Virus genome (UHGV): UHGV-0184477 | Origin: a virus | DNA length: 47,935 nt | Reading direction: 5' to 3' (one strand) | Shown here: positions 2,744 to 40,799 of the stretch, piece by piece | Layout of the letters: every line of letters starts with the position of its first letter | How positions within the stretch are numbered: position 1 is the stretch's first letter | Made by a program: the position numbers and the translations under genes | The notes under the pieces: model-generated | The model's database searches: none | Told to the model about the DNA's origin: nothing | Seen by the model: the letters and a program-made list of their open reading frames with translations, nothing else

Positions 2744-2772
2744 CACTATAGCGACACCCTCAATCTACGTCA
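2744..2772 (-). promoter_or_regulatory. Leftward sigma70-like promoter TTGACG-17-TATAGT carrying the GTAGATT motif
   Basis: On the minus strand: TTGACG (2772-2767), a 17-nt spacer beginning TAGATTG, then TATAGT (2749-2744). A conserved 12-mer TTATGATAAAAT lies at 2777-2788. Confidence 0.55.
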
Positions 2773-2934
2773 ACACTTTATGATAAAATTAAACCAACAA
2801 CACTCAACCCGCGCTGTTCCGTCCTGAAAAACGTAAGGCGGCGAAATTGGATATAGCAATCGGCGTTATCGTCATGGCGCTTTCGCTGGTTCAGGTGTAC
2901 AGATGCTGGAAGTTCATCATTCGGAGAATAATTA

Positions 2935-5667: not shown

Positions 5668-6423
5668 ATGGCTATTTGTGCAAATGATAACGGCATCATC
5701 ACAGGTCGCCAGTCGCTCATCGAGCTGGCTGATGGCTGCTGGGATGCTGTGCCAGCAGAGGAAGACTGGAAGTTTTTTGCTCCCATGACCTCAAAAGGCG
5801 TCGACTTCAGCCCAAGCACCACTACCTCAGAGGCTGATGATGGCGATGGCTTTGTCGCAACGCTGGTCACTACCGCAGACCTCACCATTTCCGGTGATTT
5901 TGAAGTTCGCAAGGCTGACAAGGCTGATGAGTATGGCGTGCATAACCTCATCAAATACTTTGTAACCGAAGTAAAAGCTCGTCGCCAGCCGTCACTGTGG
6001 GTTCGCCAGACCACTGGTAATACCGTTGTCGTTGCTTACTGCAACATTACCGCACTGAGCTACGATGGCGGCACCAATGACATCATCACCGGCTCGGTTG
6101 AATTTAAGCCGTATGATGGCTCTACCGTTGACGTGTCGAGCATCGAAGATTTGACGCTGACCACTGATATCAGTGCAACCAAAAGCGTTGCTACTGGCGC
6201 CACTCTGACGCTCGGCCCGGTAGTTGCAGCTGGCGGTGTCGAGCCTTATACCTACCAATGGTATAAAGGCACTTCGCCGATCAGCAGTGCTACTACCGAC
6301 ACGTTCACCAAGGACGATGCTGCCGCAGGTGATGCTGGTACGTACTTCTGCCGCGTGATGGATTCGGCAACCAGTCCTGATTACGTTGACTCCACCAAGT
6401 GTGTTGTTACCGTCACGCAATAA
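5668..6423 (+). CDS. Major tail protein with C-terminal Ig-like (Big_2-type) domain (251 aa)
   Basis: The C-terminal ~80 aa (TLTLGPVVAAGGVEPYTYQWYKG...GTYFCRVMDSATS...VTVTQ) is a classic bacterial Ig-like domain, as in lambda gpV-type tail tube proteins. Strong promoter and RBS, and a position ahead of the chaperone and tape measure genes. Confidence 0.7.
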   Translation: MAICANDNGIITGRQSLIELADGCWDAVPAEEDWKFFAPMTSKGVDFSPSTTTSEADDGDGFVATLVTTADLTISGDFEVRKADKADEYGVHNLIKYFVTEVKARRQPSLWVRQTTGNTVVVAYCNITALSYDGGTNDIITGSVEFKPYDGSTVDVSSIEDLTLTTDISATKSVATGATLTLGPVVAAGGVEPYTYQWYKGTSPISSATTDTFTKDDAAAGDAGTYFCRVMDSATSPDYVDSTKCVVTVTQ

Positions 6424-6451
6424 AAAAACCCCCGAAAGGGGGTTTATTTTA
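6424..6451. terminator. Bidirectional rho-independent terminator
   Basis: AAAAAACCCCCGAAAGGGGGTTTATTTT. Confidence 0.85.
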
Positions 6452-6665: not shown

Positions 6666-6815
6666 GCTTTCCTCGTCTTGTTCTTAATGCCCCACAAAAT
6701 AAGATTAGCAATAAACTCAGAGCGCCTCAGGTGAATTGCTATCGCGTAGCTTATGTCGATGCGCTGTCCTGCATATGCAGATATCACATCTTCATCGTCT
6801 TTGTTAACTGGCATT
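6663..6815 (-). CDS. Small ORF (50 aa), not in the ORF track
   Basis: ATG at 6815 with a GGAG Shine-Dalgarno sequence 8 nt upstream. Its stop overlaps the next start (ATGA). Confidence 0.3.
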
Positions 6816-7151
6816 TTTGGACTCCTGCATTTTCAGGAAAACTATCATTGCAGCTCGGAGTGGGTTGTCATTAAAGTGATATGACTCATTGAGGTAAAAT
6901 GCTTCTGCTCCCCAACGGCCTCTACCATCATTTTCGCTCATTGCGTAAATGCTTATTTTATTTGCGGTGATTATCGTCCATGCATCTGCCGGGTTTTTAC
7001 ATGGGTTAAAAGCATGCCAATTCGCGCCGTCACCCCAATGCACAGCCATATCATTATATGGGAGTCTTGATATGCAGTCGTAGTCGACCACAATCTCTGC
7101 AACACGCAAATTAATCTCAAAATCACTCATCTTGCTGTAATCAGTGCTCAT
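6804..7151 (-). CDS. DUF2591-like phage protein (115 aa)
   Basis: LRVAEIV...HWGDG...W..P...AW.I pattern is reminiscent of DUF2591 phage proteins. ATGA coupling on both sides. Confidence 0.4.
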   Translation of the reverse strand: MSTDYSKMSDFEINLRVAEIVVDYDCISRLPYNDMAVHWGDGANWHAFNPCKNPADAWTIITANKISIYAMSENDGRGRWGAEAFYLNESYHFNDNPLRAAMIVFLKMQESKNAS

Positions 7152-7295: not shown

Positions 7296-7351
7296 AATCA
7301 CCTTATGCTTTCAATCTACGTCAGTCTTGCGCCACCTGTCAATGGTATAAT
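7296..7351. promoter_or_regulatory. Divergent promoter region: leftward CTGACGTAGATTG motif and rightward extended -10 TGGTATAAT
   Basis: Motif copy at 7312-7324 and a second TACGTCA at 7352-7358. On the plus strand, TGGTATAAT at 7343-7351 lies upstream of the chaperone/tape-measure operon start at 7380. Confidence 0.5.
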
Positions 7352-20244: not shown

Positions 20245-20296
20245 TTCCATCACCTCACTTGTTATTGTCAAATGAATCTACATCAATCTACGTCTA
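20245..20296 (-). promoter_or_regulatory. Tandem GTAGATT motifs (TAGACGTAGATTGATGTAGATTC) between the VRR-NUC and downstream genes
   Basis: Two motif copies (plus 20274-20285 and 20284-20295) in a 38-nt intergenic gap. Possible internal promoter or operator. Confidence 0.35.
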
Positions 20297-26786: not shown

Positions 26787-26815
26787 TTGACGTAGATTGC
26801 TATGCATTGTATAGT
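26787..26815 (+). promoter_or_regulatory. Rightward early promoter TTGACG-17-TATAGT carrying the TAGATTG motif
   Basis: TTGACG at 26787-26792, a 17-nt spacer starting TAGATTG, then TATAGT at 26810-26815. The first early ORF starts ~30 nt downstream. Confidence 0.6.
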
Positions 26816-32481: not shown

Positions 32482-32772
32482 TTATTTATAAAGCCAGCAA
32501 TGAATCCCTGCATTGCGCATGGCGGCATAAATCACATCATCAGACACGACCGCCATTGCCACCCTGTCAGCGTCAATCTGCTGGTGCGAAGCCATGATGT
32601 CATCATAGAAAACATCGTTAGCATGCAGCCACTCATACGCATGCTTCGCCCTCATAATCAGCACATCATGCCCGGCAGAGTAGAGTGACTTAGCCAGCGC
32701 AACGTTACCAGCAATAGCATTTCCTTCCGCATCACACAGCACACCATCAAGCTCGAAAATGACACATTTCAT
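32482..32772 (-). CDS. Mini HAD-motif protein (96 aa)
   Basis: MKCVIFELDGVL resembles HAD motif I with Glu in the nucleophile position. VVSDDV resembles motif IV. Too short for a full HAD fold. Confidence 0.4.
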   Translation of the reverse strand: MKCVIFELDGVLCDAEGNAIAGNVALAKSLYSAGHDVLIMRAKHAYEWLHANDVFYDDIMASHQQIDADRVAMAVVSDDVIYAAMRNAGIHCWLYK

Positions 32773-32798: not shown

Positions 32799-32839
32799 AA
32801 TCTACGCCATGCTAGAATCTACGTCAAGGCGCATTGACA
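32799..32839. promoter_or_regulatory. Divergent promoter region: leftward TTGACG-17-TAGATT and rightward TTGACA
   Basis: Minus strand: TTGACG (32827-32822), a 17-nt spacer starting TAGATTC, then TAGATT (32804-32799). A second motif ATCTACGCCATG lies at 32801-32812. Plus-strand TTGACA at 32834-32839. Confidence 0.45.
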
Positions 32840-36445: not shown

Positions 36446-37370
36446 TGCCCGGCTTCCGCAGCCAAAATTAAGCATGAGCCTGACAGACCCACTCGGCGCA
36501 GTGGGTCGCGTCAATAAGATGGTGCGCGATCTTGATGCCAGATATGTGACGCTAAAATCGCAGGTTTCCGAGCTGTTCCGCACCATTCCTGTGGCAACCG
36601 GCAATGCTGAGGCTGGAAATTATTATTATGATTTCTCTGCCTACCGCGCATCGACATTCTTTGATGAACTTCAGCGCATTCTTGATAATCAGCTGCTGGA
36701 GGGTGACGATTTCACGCACGGAAGATTGTGGGCATCATCCTATGTCAGCGACGCCATGTACGCCGGTACGCAGAAGGCTAACTCAGACCTGAGCGACCTG
36801 TCGTCGGCATACAAAGACAGCAGGCCGCTTGCTGAAATACTGTACTCTCAGCCGTATCTCGACCGACTTCAGCTTGCGTACACGCGCACGTATAACGATT
36901 GGGGTGGTCTTTCAGATTACACTCGGCAACAGGTGGCGGAAGTCATCACTGCTGGTATTGCAAATGGCGATGCCCCTGGAGTAGTTGAGCAAAGCATCGT
37001 TAACCGCATGGACGTATCAAGAAGCTATGCACGGTCAATCGCTCAAACTGAAATCACTAACACCCTGCGCGAAGCTAACAGGCGTGAAGTGAAAGAGGCG
37101 CAGATCACGCTGGGCATGGATACCATCATGCTCTGGCAGTCGGCGTTGATGAAGACCACCCGCGTTACTCATGCCGCTCGCCATGGTAAATATTATACCC
37201 CGGAAGAGATTGATGAGTTTTACAGCGAAGGGGCAAACCGCCGCAACTGTCACTGCGCACAGACTCCAGCGCTGGTGATGGATGGCAAGCCTGTGATGCT
37301 TGAGAAGACCCAGGAAAGGCTCGATAAGCAGCGAGAAGCATGGCAGGATACACACAAGAAAGCCGCCTGA
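36426..37370 (+). CDS. Head morphogenesis protein (Mu gpF / SPP1 gp7-like; 314 aa)
   Basis: Conserved minor-head region ([17 protein letters not shown]...[18 protein letters not shown]). Overlaps the portal stop. Confidence 0.7.
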
Positions 37371-37380
37371 TGGCGGCTTC
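37359..37380. terminator. Bidirectional hairpin terminator between the head-morphogenesis gene and the antisense operon
   Basis: AAGCCGCC-TGAT-GGCGGCTT, with a T-rich tract on the minus strand. Confidence 0.6.
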
Positions 37381-37382
37381 TG

Positions 37383-37505
37383 TTAACGCTTTTTAATGAA
37401 CCCGCCGCAACCGCACTTTGGGCACATCGTATATCGAATGCCTGGCTTTTCAATCCTGTCTCGGTTGTGATGTTCGTGCTTGCATGCCACGCAGATGATA
37501 ATCAT
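37383..37505 (-). CDS. Zn-ribbon micro-protein (40 aa), not in the ORF track
   Basis: MIIICVACKHEHHNRDRIEKPGIRYTMCPKCGCGGFIKKR. TAATG overlap with the upstream 302-aa gene. Confidence 0.4.
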   Translation of the reverse strand: MIIICVACKHEHHNRDRIEKPGIRYTMCPKCGCGGFIKKR

Positions 37506-38413
37506 TAATCCTCCAGCTTCATGCCCGGCACTTTTCCAGCAGCAATGAGGTCGTAAATTTCCTCAGCGGCAGTCTGACACCATCCTGTTAACATAATTGC
37601 TTTCACCGCCTCATCGCGTCTCTTGTCCGCCTCTGAGCGGATGGGACGGAAAACTTGCTTTTCAGATGGTGTTATTCCGTAATAAGTCTCTCCAGACGGT
37701 TTAATTACAACCTTATCGCCATCCATCCCAATAACTACTACAGCCCCCCAAGATGTATCGTTACTGATAAACTCACACTCACACCCAACCGGAGGCAATC
37801 CTTCGCCGTTCCAAACCGGCGCAGCATCCTGGCCGATGCACTCATTCAGGTCGGCTTCGTCATCCGCTTTGACCTGCTCTGCTTCCTGCGGCTGGTGCAG
37901 GCGGTAGGCGATGATGTCGTATTCCGCGCCAAGTTTACTCCATCTGACAGCGAAAGCTGTATCAATGCTTCCAGAAGAGTCAGGCTCGCCAGCTTTAATA
38001 TGGCGGTTAACATCGCCACAAAGATACTTCACATCAACCAGCGTGCCGCACGGCACAGGGCATTCGCCACCAGGCCAATCAATCCAGTCATAACCAGGGC
38101 CGTCATAGTTACCACATTTACTACAAAGATAACCAGATTGCGTTCTTCCCTCGCTTGGAATCCACTTATGATCGCAGCGCTTACTGGCAGCCAGCGCGGC
38201 TTCGTACTGTTCGCGGGTGACCGCATTTGTGTAACTGTGTGGGTGTTTATATTTGTTCCATGCGTCGGATGCCATAGGTAAAGAAAACCCACGCGGCGCG
38301 AATCGACCATCAAAGAACGTTCGTCCGGATGCATGTGTAGAGATTTCGCAAACACCCTCCGGCCAGCCACCGCGCTTCGGCAGTTCTTCAACCAAAATAT
38401 CAATCAGCTTCAT
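37505..38413 (-). CDS. Cys-rich hypothetical protein (302 aa), antisense to the late genes
   Basis: Long minus ORF with several Cys clusters (KRCDHKW...CSKCGNYDG...CPVPCG...CGD; GCECEF). No recognisable catalytic motif. Coupled to flanking micro-ORFs. Confidence 0.55.
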   Translation of the reverse strand: MKLIDILVEELPKRGGWPEGVCEISTHASGRTFFDGRFAPRGFSLPMASDAWNKYKHPHSYTNAVTREQYEAALAASKRCDHKWIPSEGRTQSGYLCSKCGNYDGPGYDWIDWPGGECPVPCGTLVDVKYLCGDVNRHIKAGEPDSSGSIDTAFAVRWSKLGAEYDIIAYRLHQPQEAEQVKADDEADLNECIGQDAAPVWNGEGLPPVGCECEFISNDTSWGAVVVIGMDGDKVVIKPSGETYYGITPSEKQVFRPIRSEADKRRDEAVKAIMLTGWCQTAAEEIYDLIAAGKVPGMKLED

Positions 38414-38541
38414 TTCTTCTCTCCGTTATAAATGCTTTTCAGTTCACCCATCACATTCAGCCATGCTGCATGCTCATCCATGCCGCGCATCACCAGCTTA
38501 ACGTAGCGATTGCGGGCCTTAAACATCAGAAGCGGGCACAT
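38410..38541 (-). CDS. Micro-ORF (43 aa), not in the ORF track
   Basis: TAATG overlap with the secreted-protein gene stop and ATGA overlap with the 302-aa gene start. MCPLLMFKARNRYVKLVMRGMDEHAAWLNVMGELKSIYNGEKK. Confidence 0.3.
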   Translation of the reverse strand: MCPLLMFKARNRYVKLVMRGMDEHAAWLNVMGELKSIYNGEKK

Positions 38542-38831
38542 TATTTGTTACCGAAGGTTGAGATGCAGGCATCGCGCGCAATAACAAACATTTCTTTCGG
38601 CGTTTTGTTTGTCATCTGGTATGCGGTCTCAACGGTTGTTTTGTTGATTTCGTTGGCCTCTGCGCTCGCCTTGCTGCTAACCGATACCTCCAGCGCGATC
38701 CGCTTCGGTATGCCTGCGTCACGCGCTTCTGCTGCTGTCTGGCCGAGTTTACCGACTGCATCGCAAAGTTCACCAGCTGATGCGCCAAATGAAGCCATTG
38801 CGAATGCCGCCACTACGATAAATTTTTTCAT
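38541..38831 (-). CDS. Secreted/periplasmic small protein (96 aa)
   Basis: MKKFIVVAAFAMASFGASA-GE signal peptide with an AxA site and no lipobox. First gene of the antisense operon. Confidence 0.55.
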   Translation of the reverse strand: MKKFIVVAAFAMASFGASAGELCDAVGKLGQTAAEARDAGIPKRIALEVSVSSKASAEANEINKTTVETAYQMTNKTPKEMFVIARDACISTFGNK

Positions 38832-38859
38832 CTTGAATCCCCTATGTTTGTGTAACTAC

Positions 38860-38905
38860 ATCATCGCTTACGATTCAATCTACGTCAATAGGATTATGAT
38901 AAAAT
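38860..38905. promoter_or_regulatory. Divergent promoter region: leftward TTGACG-17-GATGAT and a rightward conserved TTATGATAAAAT element ahead of the endolysin gene
   Basis: Motif CAATCTACGTCAA at 38876-38888. TTATGATAAAAT at 38894-38905 is identical to the 12-mer at 2777-2788. Confidence 0.5.
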
Positions 38906-38929: not shown

Positions 38930-39367
38930 ATGAAACTATCAACGCGCGGAAAGAATTTAATTAAATCTCATGAAGGGCTGGTGCTTGCAGTCTACCCCGA
39001 CCCGGCAACCGGAGGCGCCCCGTACACCGCTGGATACGGCCATACCGGAAGCGACGTTAAGCCGGGAATGAAGGTCACGCAGGCAATGGCTGACGCATGG
39101 TTTGATAAAGACGTAGCGAAATTTGAAAGCGGCGTCTCTTCACTCATCACATCCCCGACAACTCAGGGCCAGTTTGATGCAATGGTGTCACTGGCCTATA
39201 ACATCGGGCTTGGTAACTTTGGCAAATCAACTCTGCTGAAAAAGCATAACGCCCGCTGCTACACCTGCGCCGCCGACCAGTTCCGGGTGTGGAATCGTGC
39301 TAATGGCAAGGTCATGAACGGACTCACTAAGCGCCGCGCTGCCGAACGTGAGGTATACATGTCATGA
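38930..39367 (+). CDS. Endolysin, GH24 (T4/lambda-type) lysozyme
   Basis: KSHEGLVLAVYPDPATGGAPYTAGYGHT contains the catalytic Glu/Asp/Thr triad spacing of T4 lysozyme. AGGTAACAA Shine-Dalgarno sequence. Confidence 0.85.
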   Translation: MKLSTRGKNLIKSHEGLVLAVYPDPATGGAPYTAGYGHTGSDVKPGMKVTQAMADAWFDKDVAKFESGVSSLITSPTTQGQFDAMVSLAYNIGLGNFGKSTLLKKHNARCYTCAADQFRVWNRANGKVMNGLTKRRAAEREVYMS

Positions 39368-39597: not shown

Positions 39598-39964
39598 GTT
39601 AATTCTAATCGCCATAGGCGTCGCGGTAATCATTGCTGCATCTGGTTATGGCGCTGGATACATGAAGGGATGGTATGCGCACAGCGAAAAAGTTAATCGT
39701 GACGCAGAAAAGCGCAGGCAGGAGGTGCAAAGCAAGCAGGCTAAGTCCACGGAGCAATCTCAGCAGGTGCGCGTTGTGACTGAAACCAAATACAAAACCA
39801 TTTACCGCGACGTGGTGAAATATGTCTCCGACCCGAATCGTAATGTGTGTGTTTTTGATGACAACTATCAGCGGTTGCGCCAACAATCACTCGACGCCGA
39901 CGCCTCCGTCAGCAGAGATGCTAGGTCAGGTGTGCGAATTATCGAAAGTGGCGCCAAAAAATAG
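39584..39964 (+). CDS. i-spanin (Rz-like; 126 aa)
   Basis: N-terminal TM anchor (LILIAIGVAVIIAASGYG) with a coiled-coil periplasmic domain. Overlaps the holin-like gene end. Confidence 0.65.
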   Translation: MTRIKLILIAIGVAVIIAASGYGAGYMKGWYAHSEKVNRDAEKRRQEVQSKQAKSTEQSQQVRVVTETKYKTIYRDVVKYVSDPNRNVCVFDDNYQRLRQQSLDADASVSRDARSGVRIIESGAKK

Positions 39965-40067
39965 CGACGAAAGTATCGTTATGGAGAACCAGAACACGGA
40001 GTGCGCCACAAAAAGAAAGATGACGATTTACGACTGGCAGGATTGGTATCGCGATAACTTCCAATAA
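39843..40067 (+). CDS. o-spanin lipoprotein (Rz1-like) in the +1 frame overlapping the i-spanin 3' end
   Basis: MCVFLMTTISGC has a lipobox (ISGC). Pro-rich mature region (TPTPPSAE). Confidence 0.55.
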   Translation: MCVFLMTTISGCANNHSTPTPPSAEMLGQVCELSKVAPKNSDESIVMENQNTECATKRKMTIYDWQDWYRDNFQ

Positions 40068-40093
40068 AAAAGCCCCGTAAGGGGCTTTGTTTT
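40066..40093. terminator. Bidirectional rho-independent terminator
   Basis: AAAAAAGCCCCGTAAGGGGCTTTGTTTT. Confidence 0.85.
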
Positions 40094-40113: not shown

Positions 40114-40329
40114 TCACGCATAAAGCGCCTCCATTTTGTACCCAAACATGGTCGCATTCTGATGCTCAACACTACCAGCAAATGCCAGATAACGGCGACC
40201 ACGATTGCTGGTGATGATGTAGGCTGCTGGTTCTCCAAGCCTCGGGACATGATAATCGCGCCGGGCAGGTTCGTGTAACTCCACCATGTCGATTTCAATG
40301 CGTGGCACGGGGTCTTGTATTGGCATCAC
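40114..40329 (-). CDS. Hypothetical protein (71 aa)
   Basis: Minus ORF, coupled (ATGA) to the upstream gene. Confidence 0.4.
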   Translation of the reverse strand: MMPIQDPVPRIEIDMVELHEPARRDYHVPRLGEPAAYIITSNRGRRYLAFAGSVEHQNATMFGYKMEALYA

Positions 40330-40799
40330 TTCACCTCCCCATTCAGTTCATTAACAATTAATGTTGCATAGCCAGCGATGTCTTTCCAGCTATCGTCGTA
40401 TGTCGGGTCGCCATTCAGGATGCGACCAATTTTATGCTGAATCATGTCGAGCGCTTCCTTCTGGCTCGCCGTCAGGTTATTCCAGCCCTCCGCGTCATGC
40501 ATAACTCGTTTCAGAGATCGCATGATTTCTGCGCCGTCTTTGAATTTGCCATAACGGCTGCCGCGCTCGGTGATGAGGGCTTCTGTTGAGATGATGCGCC
40601 AATTCAAGTCATCATCAGTTACTGGCTCACGATGGGCGATAACAATATCGCCAGCCTTTTCGATATCCTTATCTCGCCCTGCATAATCCGCGCTGAGGTA
40701 GTGGATTTTGCCACTGGTTGCTGACTTCACAGCAAGAACGGCATCTTCATGACCATTAAAATAATCAGCACTTCCTTTCAGGTATTTGTATTTCATCAC
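40326..40799 (-). CDS. Hypothetical protein (157 aa)
   Basis: Well-formed ORF. Family not recognised. Confidence 0.5.
   Translation of the reverse strand: MMKYKYLKGSADYFNGHEDAVLAVKSATSGKIHYLSADYAGRDKDIEKAGDIVIAHREPVTDDDLNWRIISTEALITERGSRYGKFKDGAEIMRSLKRVMHDAEGWNNLTASQKEALDMIQHKIGRILNGDPTYDDSWKDIAGYATLIVNELNGEVK

Follow-up and report, generated by a model that had tools for sequence, protein, structure and literature searches.

Results

An antisense four-gene unit between the head and lysis genes

The virus genome UHGV-0184477 was analysed as one stretch of 47,935 nucleotides (nt; hereafter the window), and here we describe a short unit on its minus strand that lies between head genes and lysis genes and comprises four open reading frames (ORFs): A96 (38541-38831), a predicted secreted protein of 96 amino acids (aa); B43 (38410-38541), a basic protein of 43 aa; C302 (37505-38413), a 302-aa multi-domain protein predicted to be cytoplasmic; and D40 (37383-37505), a 40-aa CxxC...CxxC peptide resembling a zinc ribbon. 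On one flank the portal gene (Phage_portal_3) is followed by a Mu F-like (MuF) head morphogenesis gene ending at 37370, and on the other stands the lysis cassette, which encodes a GH24-type lysozyme (38930-39367), a candidate holin of 77 aa and a spanin resembling Rz. The initial annotation of this DNA had chained the four ORFs by TAATG, ATGA and TAATG junctions and had them transcribed against the portal/MuF and lysis genes from a promoter to a terminator of their own; coordinates and junctions proved exact, and the antisense arrangement, with both signals conserved, was borne out. Good Shine-Dalgarno sequences can be read ahead of C302 (GGAGAG) and D40 (GGAGG), and AGGGGA ahead of A96; B43 has none, and its start codon lies within the A96 stop.

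Relatives of C302, referred to below as C-family genes, were collected as 80 encoding loci from viral contigs, together with GenBank records. The closest relatives of the region are Webervirus-type Klebsiella siphophages and Flyfo siphovirus Tbat1_6, whose DNA can be aligned over only 36-84% of 1.65 kb, and the region belongs to a Webervirus-type (Drexlerviridae) Klebsiella phage. Pooled ratios of non-synonymous to synonymous substitution (dN/dS), calculated from 8-30 distinct alleles per gene in related loci, were 0.31 for A96, 0.15 for B43, 0.43 for C302 (where synonymous sites are saturated) and 0.12 for D40. Because all four values fall between 0.12 and 0.43, we rejected the reading of these ORFs as spurious or non-coding, and their coding status is upheld. 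None of the four proteins rises above threshold in Pfam, NCBIfam or PADLOC, in line with the lack of recognisable families stated earlier; PADLOC defence models gave no match at E up to 1, PHROGs matches were confined to families of unknown function, and Rfam had no family in the region.

A conserved promoter and terminator frame the unit

A scan identified a sigma-70-type promoter at 38860-38888 on the minus strand, with the -35 element TTGACG (38888-38883), a 17-nt spacer and the -10 element GATGAT (38865-38860). Hexamers and spacer length are invariant in 31 related loci, even though the downstream gene can be as little as about 50% identical in aa sequence, and scan and invariance together confirm the promoter that had been placed here. 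The extended motif TTGACGTAGATTG, of which this -35 region is one copy, is present in seven copies, compared with an expectation of 0.49 for the window, and most stand ahead of transcription-unit starts, with copies at 2758-2773(-), 7309-7324(-), 20271-20296(-), 26787-26802(+), 32812-32827(-) and 38873-38888(-); four of the seven have a good -10 element at 17 nt (TATAGT twice, TAGATT and GATGAT). It precedes the solitary antisense ORFs 2441-2722 (93 aa) and 32482-32772 (96 aa), which lie within plus-strand blocks and match no Pfam family, as well as a plus-strand cluster of small genes at 27 kb and a minus-strand cluster of large ORFs near 20.2 kb. Because its copies precede both solitary antisense ORFs and gene clusters, TTGACGTAGATTG represents a promoter class used throughout this phage, and the label 'early' for the operon promoter is plausible since the motif also heads the 20.2-kb and 27-kb clusters. 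The copy at 7309, a weaker one, stands upstream of a NinX-like ORF (6804-7151).

Back to back with the operon promoter lies TTATGATAAAAT (38894-38905, plus strand), a candidate extended -10 element (TGnTAAAAT) aimed at the endolysin gene, which it may serve as promoter. The window holds two exact copies, at 2778-2789(+) and 38894-38905(+), each of them ahead of a plus-strand ORF and separated by 5 nt from a TTGACGTAGATTG site of the other strand, so that TTGACGTAGATTG and TTATGATAAAAT make up a repeated divergent module of about 31 bp, with the second pair at 2758-2789; the copy beside the operon promoter is conserved in relatives.

At its other end the operon is closed by an intrinsic terminator (37359-37380, minus strand), a hairpin of the form GAAGCCGCC-ATCA-GGCGGCTTT followed by CTTGTGTG, which overlaps the final codons of the convergent MuF-like gene. 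The hairpin is kept in nearly all relatives regardless of which gene comes last in the operon, and in locus L020 another hairpin with a T-run takes its position. It had been described as bidirectional, which holds for the minus strand, where it has the features of an intrinsic terminator; on the plus strand the scan found no adequate T-run.

C302 is a mosaic of predicted small beta-barrel domains

A large protein collection contains 4004 homologues of C302 (E up to 1e-3), and among the best 120 of these none is named and none carries a Pfam domain. Pfam returned nothing for C302 at E up to 1 and nothing at E up to 0.01 for 50 family members scanned singly; the PDB held no match to C302 by sequence, and a profile of 50 C-family proteins found no chain at E up to 10. 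PDB, profile and fold searches thus gave nothing specific and no homology to a routine structural or replication protein, in keeping with the unrecognised family of the initial annotation.

The AlphaFold model (AF2) of C302 has a predicted local distance difference test score (pLDDT) of 75.5 and a predicted template modelling score (pTM) of 0.35, a low value typical of beads on a string. From the N-terminus, it consists of a helix and a small beta unit, a further helix, a Cys/His knuckle, a beta-barrel, a disordered acidic linker, a second beta-barrel and two helices (residues 261-291), both barrels being five-stranded. Barrel 1 (residues 109-175; 37889-38089, minus strand) is bounded by the conserved edges GWIDWxGGECPV and DIIAYRL, and barrel 2 (residues 196-260; 37634-37828, minus strand) by WNGEGLPPVGCECE and FRPIR; each encloses a hypervariable core, of which we distinguish 24 and 19 types, respectively. 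Their Tudor/SH3 fold match is generic, dozens of unrelated Tudor/SH3 proteins scoring alike, and we take C302 to be a cytoplasmic string of small beta-barrel domains that may be Tudor/SH3-like.

The knuckle is an insertion (residues 78-108; 38090-38182, minus strand) that carries C80, H82, C97 and C100, with a predicted beta hairpin at 84-86 and 95-97, and may bind a metal ion, probably zinc. Knuckles of this type occur in 34 of 118 homologues and a close variant in four more, and 75 have a three-residue linker alone. The description of C302 as Cys-rich was therefore overstated, the protein having a single Cys/His metal-like group that lies within an insertion most homologues lack.

Conserved segments of the family (MKLIDILVEELPKRGGWP; TREQYEAALAA; GWIDWxGGECPV..VDV; DIIAYRLHQP...DLNECIGQDAAPVWNGEGLPPVGCECE; FRPIRSEA.RKRDEA; and IYDAIAAGKIPGVKLED) are separated by stretches that cannot be aligned. 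When 118 full-length homologues were cut at these conserved junctions and the pieces typed at 60% identity, the five variable segments fell into 28, 5, 24, 19 and 21 types. Identity in one segment had no predictive value for another (r = -0.01 to 0.08), the 118 proteins comprised 109 distinct cassette combinations, and many quartets of types showed all four possible combinations; at the nucleotide level the junctions are 72-90% identical and the cassettes about 41%. At the level of sequence, this comparison demonstrates that C302 cassettes reassort freely between conserved junctions, and reassortment to this degree within a 900-bp gene is unusual. As read from the listed sequences, barrel 1 variants keep the fold residues [KR]-[YW]-R-x-G ... 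W, and since these are shared, the variants are best taken as old alleles of one domain, not as unrelated inserts. A diversity-generating retroelement target was considered and rejected, the variants being discrete alleles and not point-mutated copies; the genome has no repeat of 30 nt or longer, direct or inverted, that touches 37505-38413, and a reverse transcriptase was not searched for.

The exported A96, the conserved B43 and the exchangeable last gene

A96 begins with a predicted signal peptide (residues 1-19, MKKFIVVAAFAMASFGASA/GE) that combines a basic n-region, a hydrophobic core and an AXA site and has no lipobox; it is conserved in 38 of 38 aligned homologues, and its residues are unstructured in the model. 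The Sec signal claimed for A96 is supported by this standard n-h-c layout and AXA site. The mature protein, of about 77 aa, is modelled as four helices (pLDDT 81.9 overall and above 90 over most of the mature domain), with a cysteine pair in which C89 is invariant and C23 nearly so. Homologues form just 68 clusters at 90% identity, nearly all of 96 aa (two are shorter), and the long contigs among their sources measure 42-51 kb; A96 alleles are mosaic in their N- and C-terminal halves. By these comparisons A96 is a genus-restricted, fast-evolving, predicted secreted protein. It belongs to PHROG 2315, of unknown function. Membership of YmgD (PF16456) was rejected (14.9 bits against a gathering cut-off of 27), a profile of 38 homologues found only weak matches to unrelated proteins in the PDB (E at least 0.012), and fold searches were uninformative.

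B43 is 86-100% aa identical in nearly all Webervirus-type loci, with one partial match (locus L018), and its proportion of synonymous differences (pS) is 0.18; judged on its alignments, it is the one conserved gene of the operon. No family in Pfam, NCBIfam, PADLOC or PHROGs matched it.

D40 is a predicted zinc ribbon, as had been proposed: in 10 homologues two CxxC knuckles (C5-x2-C8 and C28-x2-C31) recur at conserved spacing, with C5, C8 and C31 invariant and C28 nearly so. All Pfam zinc-ribbon models stayed below threshold, so that no specific family can be named. Only eight clusters of homologues were found, because peptides so small are rarely called. D40 is about 100% identical where it is found and otherwise absent: it stands in 14 of 32 loci, and in the other 18 it is missing or replaced, the last slot holding one of three unrelated membrane proteins of 63-64 aa, a membrane protein of 45 aa, a soluble protein of 99 aa or no gene. 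The earlier view of D40 as a fixed partner is not sustained by this distribution.

The genes are exchanged independently within a fixed frame

Within the genus the unit is never absent, and every Webervirus-type locus has A96, B43 and a C-family gene in this slot. Across the same loci, A96 is 48-64% identical to the window protein in most cases and 82-92% in the rest, and C302 relatives are 36-70% identical, with portal and MuF near 96%. We found no co-variation of A96 allele, C-terminal C302 cassette and last-slot gene. Loci with D40 include at least six types of C-terminal C302 cassette and four types of A96 allele, and one C-terminal cassette pairs with all four main kinds of last-slot gene; because D40, cassette and A96 types combine freely in this way, the operon genes assort independently. 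A link between A96 allele and endolysin type was likewise tried and rejected, the allele not following the type of endolysin. From these sequences it is apparent that promoter, B43 and terminator form a fixed frame, inside which genes have been exchanged independently by recombination with a large phage allele pool. The combination of hypervariable content and conserved frame agrees with the accessory, conflict-type character that had been ascribed to the locus.

Some relatives carry homing-endonuclease genes at the borders of the unit. A 242-aa HNH gene lies between endolysin and A96 on the opposite strand in loci L019 and L025 (slot coordinates 62-790) and is degenerate in L010, and a 299-aa endonuclease-like gene lies between the C-family gene and MuF in L021. 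Such endonucleases may promote local gene conversion and hence the mosaicism.

C-family genes beyond the genus

In more distant Drexlerviridae the slot contains other small genes and a shorter C-family protein (180-210 aa), with no A96 or B43, so that the four genes do not co-occur throughout the family; one of these small genes belongs to a family annotated 'Ead protein' in phage ZK22. Further afield, the temperate myovirus Bas97 has a C-family gene past the tail genes, ahead of ParB and integrase, and in five Enterobacterales prophages (of Enterobacter, Erwinia, Yokenella, Intestinirhabdus and one more) a C-family gene stands at most about 1.5 kb upstream of xis/int. Two lambdoid-type viral contigs show the order C-family gene, D40-type zinc ribbon, xis, int. 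Outside the genus, a D40 homologue (at least 63% identity) directly follows the C-family gene in four of five loci; E. coli genomes searched with a prophage C-D pair gave short partial matches only. Given C-family genes without A96 and B43 in other genera, Bas97 and prophages, C302 does not depend on its neighbours in the window, and together with the swapping of D40 and the alleles without co-variation this speaks against the four genes as an obligate unit.

Prophage operons with a C-family gene also encode small zinc-finger-like proteins: a 74-aa TraR/DksA zinc finger lies further upstream in the same operon in locus L111, and small Cys4 proteins that fall below the Pfam TraR/DksA model overlap the start of the C-family gene in L110 (3795-4004(+), 69 aa) and L113 (3765-4004(+), 79 aa). 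Stand-alone small barrel proteins were likewise seen in such operons (L111 2738-3001(+); L045 2482-2682(+)), one of 87 aa with the barrel motif W-x-G-x-x-LPPVG and another, SH3-like, of 66 aa with a weak YccV-like match. Homologues of barrel 1 occur as stand-alone proteins in Pantoea, Pseudomonas, Bosea and others. Because of the stand-alone proteins in prophage operons, C302-type barrels seem to circulate also as single-domain genes.

Accessory DNA on both sides of the lysis genes

Beyond the unit, several features of the lysis region were observed. The ORF 39822-40067(+) overlaps the Rz-like gene in another frame and starts with a lipobox-type signal (MSPTRIVMCVFLMTTISGC), which makes it a probable outer-membrane spanin of the Rz1 type, nested in part within Rz. 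A GC hairpin of 30 nt that stands between A and T runs (AAAAGCCCCGAAAGGGGCTTT) occurs in three copies (833-862, 6420-6449 and 40063-40092, the last directly past the spanin genes), which are likely bidirectional terminators. A second antisense block directly past the lysis cassette (40326-40799(-) and downstream) includes a DUF6378 protein, and since it follows the cassette, the lysis genes are embedded between two stretches of accessory DNA. The block's counterpart in Tbat1_6 consists of four minus-strand genes, followed by small plus-strand genes that include a Lar-like restriction-alleviation protein.

Discussion

We read the locus as a self-contained accessory unit of independent host-interaction genes under a promoter of the host type, a reading to which we assign a probability of roughly 55%. 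Host RNA polymerase would read the unit from the conserved sigma-70-type promoter, and the hairpin would terminate transcription. Each C302 barrel may be a binding module, and the protein as a whole could then be multi-specific, binding or inhibiting variable host proteins or those of competing phages, leading to counter-defence or host takeover. A96 is, judged by its signal peptide, exported to the periplasm and probably acts at the envelope, perhaps in superinfection exclusion or envelope protection; the last slot takes whichever small gene is at hand, be it a zinc ribbon or a small membrane protein, and we infer that the genes work separately and not as one complex. The accessory character of C302 is suggested because C-family genes stand near integrase and xis, the place of lambdoid early accessory genes. 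More speculatively, C302 and its approximately 4000 relatives might be a phage-borne combinatorial binder whose barrel alleles are tuned to host immunity or rival-phage proteins and which gains new specificities by recombination at the junctions, a recombination-based counterpart of antigenic-variation cassettes for counter-defence; we consider this extension rather unlikely, if less so than the alternatives discussed below.

Several points weigh against the reading as an accessory host-interaction unit. No homology links any of the four proteins to a function, and counter-defence or exclusion is deduced from location, promoter type and mode of evolution only. Neutral recombination among old lineages, without diversifying selection, could also yield discrete, reassorting alleles, and the overall dN/dS values are all below 1. 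The timing of the promoter could not be taken from the literature, in which we found no Webervirus transcriptome or expression study. The position of D40 after C-family genes in unrelated phages hints at a functional tie between D40 and C302, and since the unit always adjoins the lysis genes in the genus and alternative last-slot genes encode small membrane proteins, a lysis-related role is possible.

Accessory units of this general kind are already known, as is sub-genic mosaicism in tail fibres and other phage genes. The unit resembles morons and other accessory transcription units in having its own promoter and terminator, in its antisense insertion between portal/MuF and the lysis genes and in a content that varies among close relatives, with six alternatives or none in the last slot and A96 and C302 down to about 50% and 36% identity versus about 96% in the flanks. 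Classic morons are genes expressed from prophages, whereas this phage appears virulent, and here the frame including B43 is fixed genus-wide and only the inserts vary. Polyvalent or modular conflict proteins and mosaic tail-fibre genes diversify by domain shuffling at conserved junctions. C302 is similar in being one reading frame of interchangeable modules with recombination in conserved linkers, but its modules are alleles of the same small barrel in a 250-340-aa protein rather than enzymatic domains of different kinds, and so far as is apparent it is neither a virion component nor a receptor binder. In the lambdoid exo-xis region, accessory genes are expressed first and include zinc-binding proteins, among them the TraR homologue Orf73 (PMC8614690, PMC9239242). 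The prophage C-family gene, sometimes with a D40-type ribbon, sits a few genes upstream of xis-int, much as the genes of this exo-xis/ea region do (Ea22, Ea8.5, Orf73/TraR), whereas the unit in the window belongs to a virulent phage. The structure of the Ea22 C-terminal domain has been solved (PMC10834534); membership of C302 in the Ea22/Ead family was rejected, since the profile of 50 members finds no PDB chain and the 'Ead protein' of ZK22 is a neighbour gene and not a homologue. Finally, a stand-alone SH3 protein (DUF7244) is encoded beside the lysis cassette of Tunavirus and related Drexlerviridae (PMC13164509). Like C302, it is a small beta-barrel protein next to lysis genes in the same phage family; unlike C302, it has a single domain, and its gene is found on the opposite side of the cassette, where the exonuclease and holin genes flank it. 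Neither C302 nor 49 homologues match its Pfam model, and membership was rejected. We found no description of the locus or of the C302 family, and no functional study of the locus, in the literature.

The adjacency to lysis genes could alternatively mean that the unit is an accessory lysis control, in which A96 is a periplasmic regulator of holin or endolysin, similar to an antiholin, and the last-slot membrane proteins modulate holin timing, all wired through the shared divergent promoter region. In every Webervirus locus the unit and the endolysin gene do diverge from a conserved stretch of 98 bp with two opposed promoter-like elements; in size and layout A96 resembles a small secreted protein made of helices, peptides that cross the membrane once or twice are the products of four alternative last-slot genes, and another small beta-barrel (SH3) protein has been proposed as an auxiliary lysis component in other Drexlerviridae (PMC13164509). 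Yet in Bas97 and the prophages the C-family genes are distant from lysis genes, other Drexlerviridae genera with the same type of lysis cassette lack A96 in the slot, the A96 allele does not track endolysin type, C302 has no match to DUF7244, to which Pfam assigns the published SH3 protein, and a 77-aa holin probably leaves little periplasmic surface for an RI-like antiholin. On balance we regard lysis control as unlikely. A role of C302 in host transcription or DNA transactions seems more doubtful again: RNA polymerase, to which UvrD attaches through a Tudor-like domain, or else a nucleic-acid enzyme would be the target of its Tudor-like barrels, and the result would be takeover and not counter-defence. 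The TraR/DksA-type zinc finger in the L111 prophage operon and the Cys4 proteins directly upstream in L110 and L113 point this way, given that phage TraR homologues, including lambda Orf73, reprogram host transcription (PMC9239242). The directly upstream Cys4 proteins, however, fall short of the Pfam TraR model, the fold match is shared with dozens of unrelated Tudor/SH3 proteins, and a conserved target such as RNA polymerase leaves 19-28 variants per domain unexplained.

The model fitting the data least among the rivals weighed, and in our view a very improbable one, is the four-component machine of the initial annotation, in which an envelope subunit and cytoplasmic zinc subunits are made in fixed ratios by translational coupling. 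Stops and starts overlap at three of three junctions, A96, B43 and a C-family gene occur in every Webervirus locus, and D40 follows the C-family gene in most of the loci outside the genus (four of five). Overlapping stops and starts are, however, normal phage gene packing and do not establish a stoichiometric complex; D40 is missing or replaced in more than half of the loci (18 of 32), many phages carry C-family genes without A96 and B43, the alleles of the genes do not co-vary, and the zinc knuckle of C302 is an optional insertion. With A96 exported and C302 and D40 lacking an export signal, direct contact between them is also unlikely.

For the accessory host-interaction unit that we favour, the consequences reach beyond a single genome. 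Webervirus phages are widely isolated as therapy candidates against Klebsiella pneumoniae, and no genome of the genus examined here lacks the unit. About twenty discrete versions of a domain core, reshuffled in almost every isolate, are what an arms race would be expected to leave in a protein. If C302 indeed sets which defences or rival phages are overcome, current annotation would be missing a determinant of host range, and the variants would amount to a natural library, already assembled, in which to look for binding partners. The C302 family is very large, absent from Pfam and spread across many phage types and prophages, and a function found for it would annotate thousands of genes.

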